Positions 43,284-48,290 of a DNA stretch of 64,000 bases are shown here, in pieces (position 1 is the first letter of the stretch; each line of letters starts with the position of its first letter). The translations under genes and the position numbers were made by a program. Origin of the DNA: Dehalococcoidia bacterium (lineage in GTDB: Bacteria; Chloroflexota; Dehalococcoidia; UBA2979); assembly GCA_964291495.2 (NCBI GenBank), contig OZ219872.1, positions 480,001-544,000 on the forward strand, read 5' to 3'. The notes under the pieces were generated by a model that was given only the letters and a program-made list of their open reading frames with translations, was not told the DNA's origin and did no database searches.

Positions 43284-44093
43284 TCATGCCGGGCCGGCCA
43301 GCCGGCGCAGCACCTCGTCGTGCAGGCGTCCGTTCGAGGCGACGCGCGCTCCGGCGCCCTCCGACGGGCCGCCCTCGGCGTCGGTGATGCGGCCGCCCGC
43401 CTCCTCGACGATCGGGATCAGCGCCGCGACGTCCCACGGGTGCAGGTCGACGCCGTCGAGCATCACGTCGGCGGCGCCCTCGGCGACGAGGCAGAAGCCC
43501 CAGAAGTCGCCGAGCCCGCGCACGCGCCAGGCCTCGCCGAGCAGCGCCCGCGCCCCCGGCCAGCGCTCGAGGGTGGCGAGCGTCTCGCCGTAGACCAGCT
43601 GCGCCTCGGCGATCGTTTCGGCCTCGGAGACGCGGATGCGCTCGCCCGCGCCGCGCGCGCCCGTCGCGCCCCGGTAGGCGCCGAGCCCGCTGCCCGCCCA
43701 CCAGCGCGTCCCGAGCGCGGGCGCGGAGACGACGCCGACCTCGATGCTGCCGCCGCGCTCGCAGGCGATCAGCGTCCCCCAGACGGGGATGCCACGCATG
43801 TAGTTGTGGGTCCCGTCGATCGGGTCGAGGATCCAGCGCGCCTCGGCGTCCTCGGCTGCCTCTCCGCCCTGCTCCTCGCCGAGGACGGCGTGTGCCGGGT
43901 AGCGCTCGGCGATCCGATCGCGCAGCAGCGCCTCGATCTCGCGGTCGGCGGGCGTCACGTACGTCCCGTCCGCCTTGCGCTCGATGGCGTGCTCGCCTCG
44001 ATAGTCCCGCATCGCGATCGCGTCGGCGGCGTCCGCCAGCTCGAGGCCGAAGGCGAGGATGTCGGCTGTGGGATCAGTGGAGATAGCGGTCAG
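43284..44093 (-). CDS. hisN: Histidinol-phosphate phosphatase (inositol monophosphatase family)
   Basis: K.DGTYVT.AD, GEE, WILDPIDGT, GDFWG and WDVAAL motifs. Last gene of the his run. Start is either CTG 44093 or GTG 44135. Confidence 0.85.
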   Translation of the reverse strand: MTAISTDPTADILAFGLELADAADAIAMRDYRGEHAIERKADGTYVTPADREIEALLRDRIAERYPAHAVLGEEQGGEAAEDAEARWILDPIDGTHNYMRGIPVWGTLIACERGGSIEVGVVSAPALGTRWWAGSGLGAYRGATGARGAGERIRVSEAETIAEAQLVYGETLATLERWPGARALLGEAWRVRGLGDFWGFCLVAEGAADVMLDGVDLHPWDVAALIPIVEEAGGRITDAEGGPSEGAGARVASNGRLHDEVLRRLAGPA

Positions 44094-44875
44094 CCTTCCA
44101 ACAGCGTGAAGTGCGGCTTCTTCCCTCGACCCCACGCGGATTCAACAAACGCTCGGCAGCGCTCACCGAGCCGCTCAGCATGTTCAGGAGCGGGCACCAC
44201 CAAGTAAGTGCGCGATGTGCCACGGTGGTACCGCAGGGCCATCACGTTCTGGCGTCGCGACAGCCGGAAGTGCCGACGCAGGGCCTCCATACGATTCTCG
44301 ACTTGGATCTCCACCGTCTGTCCCTTAACGCTTCGAGAGGAGTGGTGGTACACGATGATGCTCCGTCCCGCTTCCCAATGTGGTTGGAGATCGTGGTAGT
44401 AGGCGTACTTCCTGCCGTCATTGTTGCCGCTCCCACCCACGGCCACGGGCCCGACGCTTGGGATCTCAAGACCCGTGTTGGGATCAGCGAAGACGACCTG
44501 GGCGTCGGTCACTCTCTCGAAGCCATCGGCGAGCCACTTACTCCGCTTCTGCTCCCTCTCTCCCCATGGATCGTTCGGCGTTATGTCTAATTCTTGAGAG
44601 AAACACACGGTTCCATACGGCAGGGCGTCGCTCGCCTCTACTGCCGCAATGGTCCGCTTGCCTTGCACGATCGCCCGCATCGCTCGAAAGAGTTGTGGGT
44701 TGCAGCGCTCGAAGTCATCGCTGCGTGGCGGCTGAAGGTAGTCGACATCGTTACCGCCATCGCACGACTCAAACCGGTACCACAGCACGCCAAGGCGGAG
44801 GTCGTCGCCGCACAGAGCGCGGAGCAACCCATACTTGCCGAAGTCGCCGACATCTCCGGCGTAGCAGTCCTGCAT
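44090..44875 (-). CDS. Hypothetical protein, possible Rossmann MTase-like fold; lower GC than neighbours
   Basis: MQDCYAGDVGDFGKYGLLR N-terminus and VVFADPNTG. Visibly A/T-richer. TGATG overlap with the DNA methyltransferase stop. Confidence 0.75.
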   Translation of the reverse strand: MQDCYAGDVGDFGKYGLLRALCGDDLRLGVLWYRFESCDGGNDVDYLQPPRSDDFERCNPQLFRAMRAIVQGKRTIAAVEASDALPYGTVCFSQELDITPNDPWGEREQKRSKWLADGFERVTDAQVVFADPNTGLEIPSVGPVAVGGSGNNDGRKYAYYHDLQPHWEAGRSIIVYHHSSRSVKGQTVEIQVENRMEALRRHFRLSRRQNVMALRYHRGTSRTYLVVPAPEHAERLGERCRAFVESAWGRGKKPHFTLLEG

Positions 44876-45747
44876 CAGCCCGTGACCCCCTCCGCGAAGA
44901 CGACGCCGTCGCAGGCGGCGAAGCGGCGGCGCATCACCTCGAACGCCTCCGGCGAGCTGTCGGCGAGGACGAAGCGGCGGCCGTGGCGCAGCGCCGCCTC
45001 GCCCGTCGTGCCGCTGCCCGCGACGAAGTCGCAGACCAGGCCGCCTGGCGGCGAGGAGGCGCGCACGATCCGCTCGAGCACGCCGATCGGCTTCTGCGTC
45101 GGGTAGCCCAGCTTCTCCTTGCCCGTCGGGCTCACGATCGTGTGCCACCAGGTGTCGGTCGGCAGCTTGCCGCGCGCCGCCTTCTCCGGGCCCACGAGGC
45201 CGGGCGCCATATAGGGGATGCGCTCGATGTCCTCGACGTTGAAGAGATTGCGGGAGGCGTCCTTCGCGTAGAAGAGGATGTTGTCGTGCTTCGCCGGCCA
45301 GCGCCGCTTCGGCCGCGCGCCGTAGTCGTAGGCCCAGATGATCTCGTTGACGAAGTTGACACGACCGAAGATCCGGTCCGCCAGCACCTTCGCGTAGTGC
45401 ACCTCGCGGTAGTCGAGGTGCAGGTAGAGGCTGCCCGAAGGCGCCAGCACCCGCTGCGCCTCGACGAGGAACGGCTCGAGGAAGCCGAGGTAGTCGTCGC
45501 GGGCGTCCTCGAAGGAGCGGCTGCCCAGCCGCGCGGTCTCGTAGCGCCGCCCGCCGAAGCCGCTGCGGTCGCCCTCACCGTCCTCGACACGGCGCGTGCG
45601 CAGCTGCTCGCGCGTCTGCCGCCTGCCGGTGTTGAACGGCGGGTCGAGGTAGACGAGGTCGACGCTCTCGTCCTCGAGGGTGCGCGCGACCGCCACGCCG
45701 TCGGCACAGTGCACGACGCCGCGCGGCGCGGCAGGATTGCTGCTCAC
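44875..45747 (-). CDS. Site-specific DNA methyltransferase (N6A/N4C, beta-class motif order)
   Basis: VYLDPPF precedes DFVAGSGTTG. NEIIW and YPTQKP motifs. Confidence 0.92.
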   Translation of the reverse strand: MSSNPAAPRGVVHCADGVAVARTLEDESVDLVYLDPPFNTGRRQTREQLRTRRVEDGEGDRSGFGGRRYETARLGSRSFEDARDDYLGFLEPFLVEAQRVLAPSGSLYLHLDYREVHYAKVLADRIFGRVNFVNEIIWAYDYGARPKRRWPAKHDNILFYAKDASRNLFNVEDIERIPYMAPGLVGPEKAARGKLPTDTWWHTIVSPTGKEKLGYPTQKPIGVLERIVRASSPPGGLVCDFVAGSGTTGEAALRHGRRFVLADSSPEAFEVMRRRFAACDGVVFAEGVTG

Positions 45748-45754
45748 GGCGCCG

Positions 45755-46513
45755 TCACGCCGTCAGCGTGCCCTTGGTGCTCGGCACCTCGCCGGCGATG
45801 CGCGGATCGCGGCGGGTGGCGGCATCGAGGGCGCGCCCGAGCGCCTTGAAGGCGGCCTCGGCGATGTGGTGGTCGTTCGCCCCGGCGAGCTGGCGCACGT
45901 GCAGCGCGCAGCGCGCGCCCTGCGAGAACGACTGCAGGGCGTGGCCGATCATCTCCGTCGGCGCCTGGCCGATTCGCTCGCCGCCCCAGTCGAAATCGAT
46001 CGCGGCGTAGGGGCGGCCGGAGCAGTCGATCACCGCCTGCACCAGCGCCTCGTCGAGCGGAACCGTCGCGTCGCCCATGCGCACGAGGCCCGAGCGGTCG
46101 CCCAGCGCCTCGTCGACGGCGGCGCCGAGCGCGAGCGCGCAGTCCTCCATCGTGTGGTGCTCGTCGACGTGCAGGTCGCCCTCGCAGCGCAGCTCGAGGT
46201 CGAAGCGTCCGTGCTTGGCGAACGCCTCGAGGACGTGGTCGTAGAAGCCCACGCCGGTCGCGATCCCGGCGCGGCCGGTCCCGTCGATGTCGATCTCGAC
46301 GTGGATGCGCGTCTCCGCGGTGATGCGGTCGACGACGGCGCGGCGCTCGCCATCCTCGAGGTCGCGCTTGACGCGCTTGAGGTTGGTGTTGATCGCCTGG
46401 CGGGTCACGCCGAGCTCCTCGGCGAGCCGGGTCTGGCCGCCGAGCACGTCGAGCTCGCCCGCCTCGAAGGCCTCGCGTACGCGCAGATAGGTCTCGCTCT
46501 TGATCTCGACCAT
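45755..46513 (-). CDS. hisB: Imidazoleglycerol-phosphate dehydratase with N-terminal HTH extension
   Basis: R.TAET, TGVGFYDH, GDLHVDEHHTMED, PLDEAL, NDHHIAEAAFK and PSTKG motifs. An extra ~55 N-terminal aa contain QTRLAEELGVTRQAINTNL. Confidence 0.93.
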   Translation of the reverse strand: MVEIKSETYLRVREAFEAGELDVLGGQTRLAEELGVTRQAINTNLKRVKRDLEDGERRAVVDRITAETRIHVEIDIDGTGRAGIATGVGFYDHVLEAFAKHGRFDLELRCEGDLHVDEHHTMEDCALALGAAVDEALGDRSGLVRMGDATVPLDEALVQAVIDCSGRPYAAIDFDWGGERIGQAPTEMIGHALQSFSQGARCALHVRQLAGANDHHIAEAAFKALGRALDAATRRDPRIAGEVPSTKGTLTA

Positions 46514-46591
46514 TGGGCTGCCCTTCCGGTTCGCCCGATCAGCGTATGGCCTGCGTCAAATTGTGTCTACTCTTAGGTGTGATTGGCAGAT

Positions 46592-46614
46592 TGACGTACT
46601 ATTACTCTACGTCA
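46592..46614. promoter_or_regulatory. Palindrome TGACGTA-N9-TACGTCA in an AT-rich spacer (candidate operator)
   Basis: Perfect 7-bp inverted repeat about 80 bp upstream of HTH-hisB. A further CGTCAA half-site lies at about 46554-46559. Confidence 0.5.
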
Positions 46615-46655
46615 GCAGTGAACGGGTGACTCAGTCGCCGGCGGCGGAGGTTCGT

Positions 46656-46856
46656 CTAGGCGGTTTCGAATTGCAGGGCCGAGAGGTTGACATCAGATGA
46701 ACGCTCAGAGAGGCGCAGCATCTCGACGCCGACGACTTCGTTCGCCTCGTTGTAGTCGAGCACGACGCCCGGCGAGACTTCCTCGGACTCGACGATGGCC
46801 GAGTCGTCGAGGCGGAGGTAGAGAGCATCGGCCTCTTTGTCCACGCGCAGCTTCAC
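46656..46856 (-). CDS. DUF2283 family protein (putative antitoxin)
   Basis: D.EADALYLRL, ESEEV.PGVVLDY and VVGVE motifs. GTGA overlap with the upstream gene. Confidence 0.85.
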   Translation of the reverse strand: MKLRVDKEADALYLRLDDSAIVESEEVSPGVVLDYNEANEVVGVEMLRLSERSSDVNLSALQFETA

Positions 46857-47104
46857 AGTTGGCCCCTCATGGCTCGATCGAAGAATACGCTCACGACCCG
46901 CCACGGCACAACGCGAGTATTGACCGCCACGCGCAGCACCCGGTCGTCGCGCTCTGGTATACCCGCGAAGAAGCGCTCCACTTCAGGGTCATGCGCGTCG
47001 TGCGTTCTCAACTCTGGCGCCGCCACGACGCGCTCGGCCCACTCGATAGGAATCCTCCGCTCCGCCAGGGCGTCCAGCGCGTGCCGTGTGAACGACAGTC
47101 TCAT
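46853..47104 (-). CDS. DUF4258 family protein (putative RelE-fold toxin)
   Basis: FTRHA...LAERRI, RVLRVAVN and VVSVFFDR motifs. Paired with DUF2283. Confidence 0.8.
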   Translation of the reverse strand: MRLSFTRHALDALAERRIPIEWAERVVAAPELRTHDAHDPEVERFFAGIPERDDRVLRVAVNTRVVPWRVVSVFFDRAMRGQL

Positions 47105-47123
47105 GACGCCTGCGGCTGCACGT

Positions 47124-48290
47124 TCACCGCGCCCCGCCCTCCACCTCCCGGCGCGCCTCGGACAGGGCCGCGAGCAGGCGCTCGCTGTCCTCGGAAGTGC
47201 CGGCGGAGATGCGGACGTGGTCGCGCAGGCGCTCGTGGCCGAAGAAGCGCACGAAGACGCCGCGCCGCGCCAGCGCCTCGCGCAGCGCCGCGCCGCTGCC
47301 AAAGGCGAGGCGACAGAGCAGGAAGTTGGCCTGCGAGGGCACAGGCTCCAGCCAGCCGCCCGCGCGCAGCTCGGCCGCCAACCGGTCGCGCTCGCCGGCG
47401 ATCTCGCAGGCGCGCTCGTCGAGCAGCAGCGCATCCTCGAGCGAGGCGAGCGCGGCCGCCTCGGCGGCGGTGCTGACGCCGTAGGGCTGCTTGCACTGCA
47501 TCAGCAGCGAGGCGACCGGGGCCGGCATCACGCCGTAGCCGACGCGCAGCCCGGCGAGACCGGCCCACTTGCTGAACGTGCGCAGCACGATCAGCGGCGC
47601 CTCGCCAGGTCTGCCGTCCTCGGCGGCGCGGTCCGCGAGGCTTGGCGATCCGCTGTGCCCGCCCTCGCGCCCGCTCGCGAACTCCACGTAGGCCTCGTCG
47701 ATCACGACGATCGCGCCGCTTGTGCGCAGGCGCTCGGCGGCGCCGGGCGGCAGCAGCCCGCCCGTCGGGTTGTTGGGCGAGGGCAGGAAGACCGCCTTCG
47801 CGCCCTCGCAGGCCGCGGCGAGGCCATCGAGGTCCACCGACCAGTCGTCGCGCCTGGGCACGTCGACGAGCTCCGCGCCGGCGATCTCCGCGCCGAAGGG
47901 ATACATCCCGAAGGTCGGCGAGGCGATCACGACGCGGTCGCCAGCCTCGACGAAGATGCGGAAGACGAGGTCGATGATCTCGTCGGCGCCGGCGCCGGCG
48001 ACGATGCACTCCGGCGACACGCCGTGCCGCGCGCCGAGGGCGTCGCGCAGCCTTCGCTGCTCCGGGTCCGGGTAGCGGTGCGCCGCGTAGCCCCCGGCCA
48101 GCGCCTCGAGGGCGTGTGGCGAGGGGCCGTAGGGGTTCTCGTTGCCGTCGAGCTTGACGATCGCCTCGGGCGCGACGCCGTAGCGGGCGGCGACCTGCTC
48201 CGGCGGGTCGATCGGCTCGTAGCCGCGCAGCGAGCGCAGTGGCGGGCGCAGCGCGCCCTCGAGGTCGAAGCTCGCGGAGTCCGTCATCAC
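47124..48290 (-). CDS. hisC: Histidinol-phosphate aminotransferase
   Basis: KLDGNENPY, RYPD, GADE, SPNNPTG, DEAY.EF and RTFSKWAGLAGLRVGY motifs. Confidence 0.95.
   Translation of the reverse strand: MMTDSASFDLEGALRPPLRSLRGYEPIDPPEQVAARYGVAPEAIVKLDGNENPYGPSPHALEALAGGYAAHRYPDPEQRRLRDALGARHGVSPECIVAGAGADEIIDLVFRIFVEAGDRVVIASPTFGMYPFGAEIAGAELVDVPRRDDWSVDLDGLAAACEGAKAVFLPSPNNPTGGLLPPGAAERLRTSGAIVVIDEAYVEFASGREGGHSGSPSLADRAAEDGRPGEAPLIVLRTFSKWAGLAGLRVGYGVMPAPVASLLMQCKQPYGVSTAAEAAALASLEDALLLDERACEIAGERDRLAAELRAGGWLEPVPSQANFLLCRLAFGSGAALREALARRGVFVRFFGHERLRDHVRISAGTSEDSERLLAALSEARREVEGGAR

Follow-up and report, generated by a model that had tools for sequence, protein, structure and literature searches.

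Enzymes that double as transcription factors are few. BirA, NadR, PutA and the archaeal RbkR are enzymes with a fused DNA-binding domain (PMC5397151, section 14); RbkR was first recognised by comparative genomics and often autoregulates the rbkR-ribB genes, and none of the enzymes named in that section belongs to histidine biosynthesis (PMC5397151). Here, we describe a gene of a Dehalococcoidia bacterium in which hisB, encoding imidazoleglycerol-phosphate dehydratase (IGPD), is fused in frame to an N-terminal helix-turn-helix (HTH) domain. The gene lies on contig OZ219872.1, positions 480,001 to 544,000, and this whole stretch of 64,000 nucleotides (nt) is called the window. A domain of DNA-binding type and an intact enzyme domain, a combination expected of a trigger enzyme, were found within one polypeptide. 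The fusion arose once, its HTH domain is under strong purifying selection, and it has been co-inherited with an array of four short sequence boxes upstream of the gene. Together, these features suggest that a phage-derived HTH gene and its operator may have been captured by the enzyme and may repress an internal promoter of the histidine operon.

The fusion resembles BirA, NadR, PutA and RbkR in that an N-terminal DNA-binding domain is attached to a pathway enzyme, with candidate operators at its own predicted promoter. It differs from them in several respects: IGPD is absent from the list in PMC5397151 (section 14), the HTH domain appears to be a minimal three-helix domain of phage type and not a winged HTH or ribbon-helix-helix domain, the scaffold is expected to be a 24-mer and not a dimer, and the fusion is young and restricted to one subclade of one genus, its DNA binding being putative. 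Fusions of his genes are listed in PMC9413887 and PMC1963479; no DNA-binding partner is mentioned in these lists, and the term "DNA-binding" occurs zero times in PMC1963479. Bifunctional HisB, which consists of a HAD-type histidinol-phosphatase and IGPD, resembles the present protein in that IGPD carries an additional domain at its N-terminus, on the outside of the oligomer. Here, however, the extension is an HTH domain of 55 residues and not a HAD domain, and a separate HisN phosphatase is encoded (TIGR02067, E = 5.6e-72). The model of bifunctional HisB, NF003937, scored 225.7 bits against a cut-off of 443, the match essentially comprising the IGPD part, and a Pfam scan yielded no HAD domain. 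HisR (PMC9413887), which belongs to the TrpR family and represses his genes of Gram-positive bacteria, is likewise a DNA-binding protein that was proposed from comparative genomics to control histidine genes. However, HisR is free-standing and has a regulon, whereas the HTH domain described here is fused, is unrelated to TrpR in the Pfam scan, and is accompanied by a box array that occurs once in the genome. The initial annotation of this DNA knew of no described HTH-HisB fusion, and no description was found in the open-access full-text literature either.

The enzyme domain is a complete IGPD. Pfam IGPD (PF00475) matched residues 86-229 over all of its 144 profile positions (1-144; E = 5e-59, 199 bits, cut-off 27), and two NCBIfam HisB equivalog models scored above their cut-offs (NF002111, 238.4 versus 231; NF002114, 197.8 versus 189). 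About 55 in-frame residues containing QTRLAEELGVTRQAINTNLKRV had initially been noticed before the IGPD core, and this arrangement was borne out: 18 distinct solved IGPD sequences align only from residue 52-63 onwards (one from residue 83) to near the C-terminus, and the best match, 6fwh_A, covers residues 56-250 (phmmer, E = 1.8e-64). The motifs DH, DEHHTMED, GH, NDHHIAE and PSTKG are present. H93, H119/H120/E123, H191 and H215/H216/E219 match the same residues in alignments with the solved enzymes 6fwh and 2f1d, and we take these residues to be the Mn ligands of IGPD. PF00475 had a single match in the genome, and the fused HisB is thus the only IGPD found there. Because it is the only IGPD of the cell, the fused protein must still work as an enzyme; from this status, we infer that it has dehydratase activity and undergoes Mn-dependent assembly into a 24-mer. 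An AlphaFold2 (AF2) model of the full-length protein had a mean pLDDT of 58.4, with values below 50 from residue 139 and a poor C-terminal half.

The distribution of the fusion was analysed in related genomes. hisB was found in 38 of the 41 genomes searched. In ten genomes, all from one genus and including that of the window, the match extends from residue 1 or 2 to residue 252, with 90-100% identity and without stop codons; the nine other carriers contain full-length orthologues with 90-97% identity. In the remaining 28 genomes, the match to hisB begins at residue 44-61 (one match was partial). When residues 1-60 were searched separately in all 19 genomes of the genus, the HTH domain was detected in the same ten and nowhere else. 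The fusion is thus genuine and kept in close relatives (10/19 genomes of the genus). Among 1.84 billion representative proteins, a single fused cluster was found among the 10 matches with E <= 0.001. A collection of 5.8 billion proteins contained four 90%-identity clusters with the fusion, one of which is named by NCBI merely HisB of a Chloroflexi metagenome-assembled genome. In a tree of HisD and HisC from 20 loci, the ten carriers formed one clade with a support of 100/100. Its sister group comprised seven non-carriers from the genus, and three further genera branched off outside both; G007, in which hisD is cut, and G002, which had no hisB match, were left out. A single gain is thus sufficient to account for the distribution of the fusion. 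Separately, the carrier genomes are mostly larger (2.9-4.1 Mb, n = 10) than those of the non-carriers (2.3-3.3 Mb, n = 9), which is an impression only, given the rounded sizes and the relatedness of the genomes.

The ten fused coding sequences are of equal length (252 codons) and contain zero indels. The ratios of nonsynonymous to synonymous substitution rates (dN/dS; Nei-Gojobori, 45 pairs) were 0.077 for the HTH domain (codons 3-50), 0.97 for the linker (codons 51-62), and 0.185 for the IGPD domain (codons 63-252). Variable sites in the HTH codons numbered 4, 3, and 20 at the first, second and third codon positions, and the residues of helix 3 up to position 50 were invariant across the ten species. 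The HTH domain is under purifying selection stronger than that on the enzyme, and the linker evolves freely. The HTH domain is very probably functional.

Codon 1 is ATG in six of the ten fused loci, and in the other four it is ACC, followed by GTG as codon 2. In all ten loci the start is preceded by the block ACCGG.AgGG.CgGCCCC, which includes a Shine-Dalgarno (SD) motif. Within codons 3-35, the numbers of variable sites at the three codon positions were 4, 3, and 15. A translation start downstream of the HTH domain, considered in the initial annotation, is disfavoured by the SD motif and start kept in 10/10 loci and by this codon-like variation. The window contains no in-frame ATG, GTG or TTG between codon 36 and the IGPD core, and the HTH domain, whole or truncated, is therefore an obligatory part of its sole IGPD. 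We are almost certain that the fusion is real and translated. As for the junction itself, unfused HisB proteins of sister species begin with MSERRATV or MTARRATL (M-x-x-RRA) directly after hisC, from which hisB is separated by a few tens of nt at most, and the fusion joins ...KRDLEDG to ERRAVV. In five of the ten fused genes (L004, L006, L007, L009, L010) codon 56, at the junction, is GTG, with GAGGA before it; the window has GAG at this codon.

The family and fold of the HTH domain were characterized with profile and structure comparisons. The best Pfam match was YdaS_toxin (PF15943; E = 9.2e-6, residues 22-50, 25.8 bits, cut-off 30). Cro (E = 0.0029) and HTH_11 (E = 0.0078, 16.5 bits, cut-off 25) also matched, and P22_Cro and KORA were weaker. 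A precomputed table of the protein collection assigns PF15943 to the orthologues P0001-P0004 and also to P0007, a stand-alone relative. The best PHROG match was phrog_7061, "HTH DNA binding protein" (E = 2.2e-4). An AF2 model of residues 1-60, based on 14 aligned sequences, had a pLDDT of 89.9 and contained three helices (residues 7-17, 26-34, and 38-59), the third of which is the putative recognition helix. No strand was modelled between helix 3 and the first IGPD strand (residue 58), and a wing is absent. The initial annotation had assigned the domain to the HTH_11/BirA type of winged HTH and had suggested an AlphaFold check; the HTH fold was confidently modelled, and the winged BirA type was supported neither by the model nor by the HTH_11 score. 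The nearest solved folds are all HTH DNA-binding domains with weak scores. The top Foldseek matches were the DNA-binding domains of KorA (E = 0.25, probability 0.98, TM 0.63), which are weak. VIA-align placed a chain of an RNA-guided transcription complex and an archaeal transcription factor first (Z 6-7.0, graded middling), followed by region 4 of sigma factors, LuxR-type domains, KorA and homeodomains (Z 6-7.0). The domain is thus predicted to be a minimal three-helix HTH of phage-like type that lies below the cut-offs of curated families.

YdaS is an equivalent of Cro. The small repressors of the Cro/YdaS and KorA types (PF15943, PF09048, PF16509; 5clv, 2w7n) resemble the fused domain in their three-helix HTH and in that it has a relative on a viral contig. 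However, the scores are below the curated cut-offs or have E values of at least 0.25, the fused HTH has no dimerisation module of its own and carries IGPD in its place, and the candidate sites are head-to-head pairs of direct repeats and not a single short palindrome.

A profile search retrieved four clear stand-alone relatives of the HTH domain, P0007 (87 residues), P0008 (63), P0009 (73), and P0014 (73). The stand-alone relatives terminate exactly at ...KRDIEAG or ...KKDISDG. These ends match the fusion junction, and the start of hisB was therefore taken over by an entire small HTH gene that had lost its stop codon. Several other searches were negative. A word-based search for shorter proteins related to the HTH domain found none, genome contigs scanned with the single proteins P0009 and P0007 contained no relative, a metagenome scan with P0007 returned a MarR-like protein only, tblastn against GenBank phages gave no match, and a BFVD fold search yielded nothing below E = 0.26. 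A sample of 401 genomes of the phylum contained weak generic HTH matches only, the best of which (in G328) is a GntR-type regulator, and the own genome encodes no HTH paralogue (next best E = 0.47).

Next to the coding sequence, the upstream region is conserved. The ten fused loci align without gaps over about 95 nt back from the start codon, whatever gene lies beyond. The consensus reads aGTCAa..tgCGTCAAc - variable stretch of about 19 nt - aGTAGACA.A.gTTGACt..AgGcCgTACGcTGga.GGGCGcACCGG.AgGG.CgGCCCC-start and comprises four boxes. Box 2 (CGTCAAY) is present in all ten loci, with a mean pairwise identity of 0.92, and box 3 (GTAGACA) in nine (ATGGACA in G004), with a mean pairwise identity of 0.94; box 1 (GTCAAY) and box 4 (TTGAC) have identities of 0.74 and 0.83, respectively. 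Outside the boxes, the mean pairwise identity is at the random level, with values of 0.28 for the 18 nt that separate box 2 from box 3 and of 0.29 for 20 nt 5' of box 1. The start-to-start distances are 10 nt between boxes 1 and 2, 25 nt between boxes 2 and 3 (26 nt in G012), and 10 nt between boxes 3 and 4. Comparison of the ten loci thus revealed selection on the boxes and a fixed geometry. The array consists of two direct-repeat pairs arranged head to head: GTTGAC (box 4) gives boxes 1 and 2 when read on the opposite strand, and box 3 is a one-base variant of box 4. A promoter-like pair coincides with the array: TAnnnT is found in 10/10 loci, ending 26-28 nt 5' of the start codon, and the spacer between TAGACA and TAnnnT is 17 or 18 nt in every case.

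The word pair CGTCAAY-N17-20-RTRGACA occurs at the hisB locus of all ten carriers and of none of the nine non-carriers of the genus; the seven further matches in the genus lie elsewhere, in stretches rich in G+C. The own genome contains a single copy of the array, and a lone GTCAAY-N25-35-GTTGAC site on C5 is at chance level. Scans of positions 46300-47200 of the window retrieved no terminator-like site by consensus and no Rfam match with E values up to 1. RNAalifold of the region from -45 to +10 in the ten loci predicted a weak stem around the SD motif (-5.9 kcal/mol, covariation +0.26), and an RNA element is thus unsupported.

A hint that links the HTH family to the boxes came from L036, a viral contig of 28.4 kb from IMG/VR. 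It contains a free gene of 73 codons, the product of which is 34% identical to the HTH domain and is the sole stand-alone relative whose surroundings are known, and the neighbours of this gene resemble a ParB-type nuclease and a DNA ligase, as judged by eye from their translations. The word pair CGTCAAY-N5-30-GTAGA, defined from the his loci, had one match on both strands of 6159 nt of this contig. This match, CGTCAAT-N9-GTAGA (2912-2932), shares the strand of the HTH gene, the ATG of which follows 12 nt after the end of the match; any match was found in 7 of 200 shuffles of the locus. The start-to-start spacing of the words is 10 nt, or one helical turn, shorter than that of boxes 2 and 3 at the his loci. 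We regard these words as one independent hint, based on the sequence of a single case. The coordinates of the features in the window are summarised in the table.

Table. Features of the HTH-IGPD fusion gene, its upstream region, and the downstream gene pair (window coordinates).
Feature	Position	Strand	Basis or remark
HTH-IGPD fusion coding sequence	45755..46513	(-)	Open reading frame list; 252 residues + stop
IGPD (HisB) enzyme domain, residues 57-252	45758..46345	(-)	phmmer versus solved IGPDs, NCBIfam
N-terminal three-helix HTH domain (predicted), residues 1-55, helices 7-17, 26-34 and 38-53	46349..46513	(-)	Pfam, AF2, dN/dS
Linker DLEDGERRAVVD, residues 51-62, holds fusion junction ~G55/E56	46328..46363	(-)	dN/dS
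Shine-Dalgarno-like GGAAGGG, 7 nt 5' of ATG 46511-46513	46521..46527	(-)	Read from sequence
-10-like hexamer TACGCT (TAnnnT)	46541..46546	(-)	
Box 4, TTTGAC (consensus GTTGAC), inside promoter spacer, starts 10 nt after start of box 3	46555..46560	(-)	
Box 3, GTAGACA, includes -35-like TAGACA 17 nt 5' of TACGCT	46564..46570	(-)	
Box 2, CGTCAAT (consensus CGTCAAY), right arm of the inverted repeat	46590..46596	(-)	
Box 1 position, GTAATA here (consensus GTCAAY), 10 nt 5' of box 2	46600..46605	(-)	Degenerate in window
Perfect inverted repeat TGACGTA-N9-TACGTCA	46592..46614	.	Once in genome
Methyltransferase gene + 'hyp', between hisB and hisN	window 44090-45747; loci L013-L029	(-)	

We propose that in the ancestor of the subclade a complete small HTH gene from a rare phage-associated family integrated 3' of hisC, directly in front of hisB, bringing along about 100 nt of its control region, and that it was fused in frame with hisB, yielding a two-domain protein. 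The HTH domain would bind the four conserved hexamer boxes. Repression would be the expected effect of binding, since box 3 includes the -35-like hexamer and box 4 falls into the promoter spacer; when occupied, these two boxes would block RNA polymerase, which would result in negative autoregulation of an internal promoter for hisB, the two genes that follow it, and hisN. The IGPD oligomer may supply the multimerisation that so small an HTH domain lacks, and repression could follow the amount or the assembly state of the enzyme. The IGPD 24-mer measures about 110 Å, is of 432 symmetry and exposes its N-terminal sheet on the outside (PMC10978614). Since this sheet faces outward, an N-terminal HTH domain on a free linker of 12 residues would decorate the exterior of the particle, and the two head-to-head box pairs span about 51 bp. 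We lean slightly towards the view that the HTH domain binds these boxes, judging from the sequences at hand. That a phage-derived cassette of HTH gene and operator was fused to hisB and represses the internal promoter is, taken as a whole, an evenly balanced proposition. Modulation of DNA binding by the state of the enzyme is doubtful. A little more doubtful still is a version in which the 24-mer is a multivalent repressor that displays up to 24 HTH domains, and in which only the assembled particle (Mn2+-bound and perhaps substrate-sensitive) bridges the box pairs.

Several points weigh against repression by such a captured cassette. DNA binding, the sign of the regulation, the metabolic coupling and the transcript start are deduced from sequence. 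Every Pfam score of the HTH domain is below the gathering threshold, and the fold matches are weak (Foldseek E >= 0.25, VIA-align Z <= 7.0). Because all ten carriers descend from one event, the co-occurrence of the HTH domain with the boxes is co-inheritance, and the 45 pairs in the dN/dS analysis are not independent. Box 1 is present in only seven loci, having changed to GTAATA in G000 (the window) and G005 and to GTCAGC in G009, and box 4 is altered in two (TTAAC in G010, TTTAC in G014). Direct repeats within box pairs are unusual for Cro-like dimers. The parallel on the viral contig is one locus, with the boxes much closer to the gene than at the his loci. A sigma-70 consensus scan of positions 46300-47200 retrieved zero promoter-like sites, because TAGACA and TACGCT match the consensus at only 8 of 12 positions. 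None of the 24 listed sequencing runs is recorded as RNA. Finally, GTG codon 56 could act as an internal start for an HTH-free IGPD in the five genomes that have it.

Among the alternatives, a frozen accident survives best, although we consider it rather unlikely. In this case the cassette would be kept for its promoter, SD motif and start codon, and the HTH domain would have no useful DNA binding. Its conservation would stem from the requirement that whatever is appended to an essential 24-mer folds well and stays soluble, and the boxes would persist because they serve as promoter or UP-like elements or are bound by another factor. At the junction, the original start of hisB has given way to the HTH gene, so that hisB without the extension would have no translation start; this argues for such an accident, as do the decay of box 1 in 3/10 genomes and the HTH-free enzyme that the GTG at the junction could already yield in half of the carriers. 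However, a dN/dS value of the HTH domain below that of the enzyme and the invariance of helix 3 up to position 50 are difficult to reconcile with a mere appendage. The boxes indeed look like -35 hexamers (TTGAC, TAGACA), but four boxes at a fixed 10/25/10 spacing exceed the needs of a promoter, and box 4 is only 7 nt away from the -10-like hexamer and therefore cannot be the -35 element of TACGCT. Moreover, boxes 1 and 2 are oppositely oriented, yet there is no divergent gene in five of the ten loci, and the same two words recur 5' of the distant stand-alone relative on the viral contig.

Controller (C) proteins are small HTH autoregulators with multi-box operators. It is therefore to be considered that the HTH domain is a C-like protein that times or limits a restriction-modification pair and not histidine synthesis, which we regard as improbable. 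The gene that follows hisB, 7 nt after its stop codon, encodes a type II DNA methyltransferase (MTase; PADLOC PDLC03300, E = 8.7e-129), and it is followed by 'hyp' (256 residues; window 44090-44860, minus strand), a fast-diverging gene without a family match, for which the ESM Atlas contained unnamed clusters only. The MTase was found after hisB in 17 of the 18 loci of the genus that were fetched, with or without the HTH domain, and 'hyp' in 16. The MTase is 85-95% identical over the genus; 'hyp' is 36-48% identical in most genomes and about 81-86% identical in G011 and G017, is in two pieces in G017, and was undetected by this query in G001. The two genes resemble a restriction-modification pair inside the his operon, with a putative nuclease that undergoes allele turnover. 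However, the pair also follows hisB in seven HTH-less genomes of the genus, and it is thus independent of the HTH domain, which did not arrive together with it. In addition, the HTH domain is located 5' of hisB, away from the putative nuclease, and is fused and not free-standing, PADLOC yielded no match for it, and the boxes form direct-repeat pairs, unlike C-boxes, which are palindromic.

There is also little probability that the HTH domain is functional and is not a transcription factor here, and that it tethers the IGPD particle to the nucleoid or binds RNA or a protein partner. The strong selection on the domain would fit such a role, the boxes being linked to the domain by sequence only. 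Among its fold neighbours are sigma region 4 and YlxM/UPF0122-like proteins, and some of these neighbours work by contacting other proteins. However, a non-transcriptional role would leave both the conserved, co-inherited box array and the matching words 5' of the viral relative unexplained.

The initial annotation had singled out the inverted repeat TGACGTA-N9-TACGTCA as the operator of a BirA-like winged HTH, which has become very improbable. The repeat is perfect and occurs once in the genome, and the additional half-site that had been noted, TTGACG (CGTCAA on the other strand) at 46554-46559, is also present and corresponds to the region of box 4. The right arm overlaps box 2, and in this genome, in which box 1 has decayed, the left arm brings a new TGACG word, the core of box 4. 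However, the left arm is missing in all nine sister fused loci, and the repeat thus does not co-occur in homologous loci as had been asked. Of 5000 shuffles of the 142-nt spacer, 422 contained one or more perfect inverted repeats of 7 nt whose arms were no more than 15 nt apart, and the 64-kb window contains 330 such repeats. The repeat was rejected as an operator because it is lineage-specific and within chance, and a winged type of HTH is at variance with the low HTH_11 score and the wingless model. The spacer had been called AT-rich, which holds relative to the genome (56% versus 71% G+C) and not in absolute terms. Of the initial view, the fusion and its conservation have thus held, and the palindromic operator and the BirA/HTH_11 type have not. 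Hardly credible, finally, is an annotation artefact in which translation starts further downstream and the extension is an untranslated leader: GTG codons 23 and 36 are kept in all ten loci, but the variation in codons 3-35 follows the codon position, the ten species have neither stops nor indels, SD motif and start are kept at codon 1 or 2, and a start at codon 36 would halve the HTH domain, leaving the selection on its first half unexplained.

The genes of the unit are arranged in the order hisD-hisC-[DUF4258-DUF2283]-HTH::hisB-MTase-hyp-hisN-amt, all on the minus strand. Because no terminator-like site was found between hisC and hisB, transcription probably continues from upstream into hisB, and the new promoter would supplement this read-through. 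A hot spot of small toxin-antitoxin-like pairs extends from hisC to box 1 (window 46656-47104, minus strand; L014 8364-9100; L015, L017, L021). It contains DUF4258 and DUF2283 in G000, G005, and G012, DUF2283 alone in G017, and a different pair of small genes in G009, one of which is DUF4258/BrnT-like by eye; in the remaining five carriers, hisC is about 105-125 nt away from the start codon. At the other end of the unit, the longest open reading frame of hisN (43284-44135, minus strand, GTG at 44135) shares 46 nt with the end of 'hyp'. Translation of hisN may in fact start further downstream, as the match to TIGR02067 begins at residue 27.

In summary, this case looks like the recent capture of a small HTH gene and its operator by an essential enzyme, kept under strong selection in ten species. 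If the putative regulatory function is real, the fusion would be new among the trigger enzymes in its enzyme, its pathway, the type of its DNA-binding module, and its scaffold. Should the 24-mer indeed be the repressor, its assembly or occupancy would determine how strongly hisB, the restriction-modification-like pair, and hisN are transcribed, and a new trigger enzyme for amino-acid biosynthesis would be at hand, with a repressor built from the quaternary structure of the enzyme. The case thus raises the question of whether a repressor can do without a dimerisation module of its own when a fused enzyme contributes its quaternary structure. Even without DNA binding, the case would show how an essential gene can come to rely on an inserted cassette that provides its promoter and its start codon.

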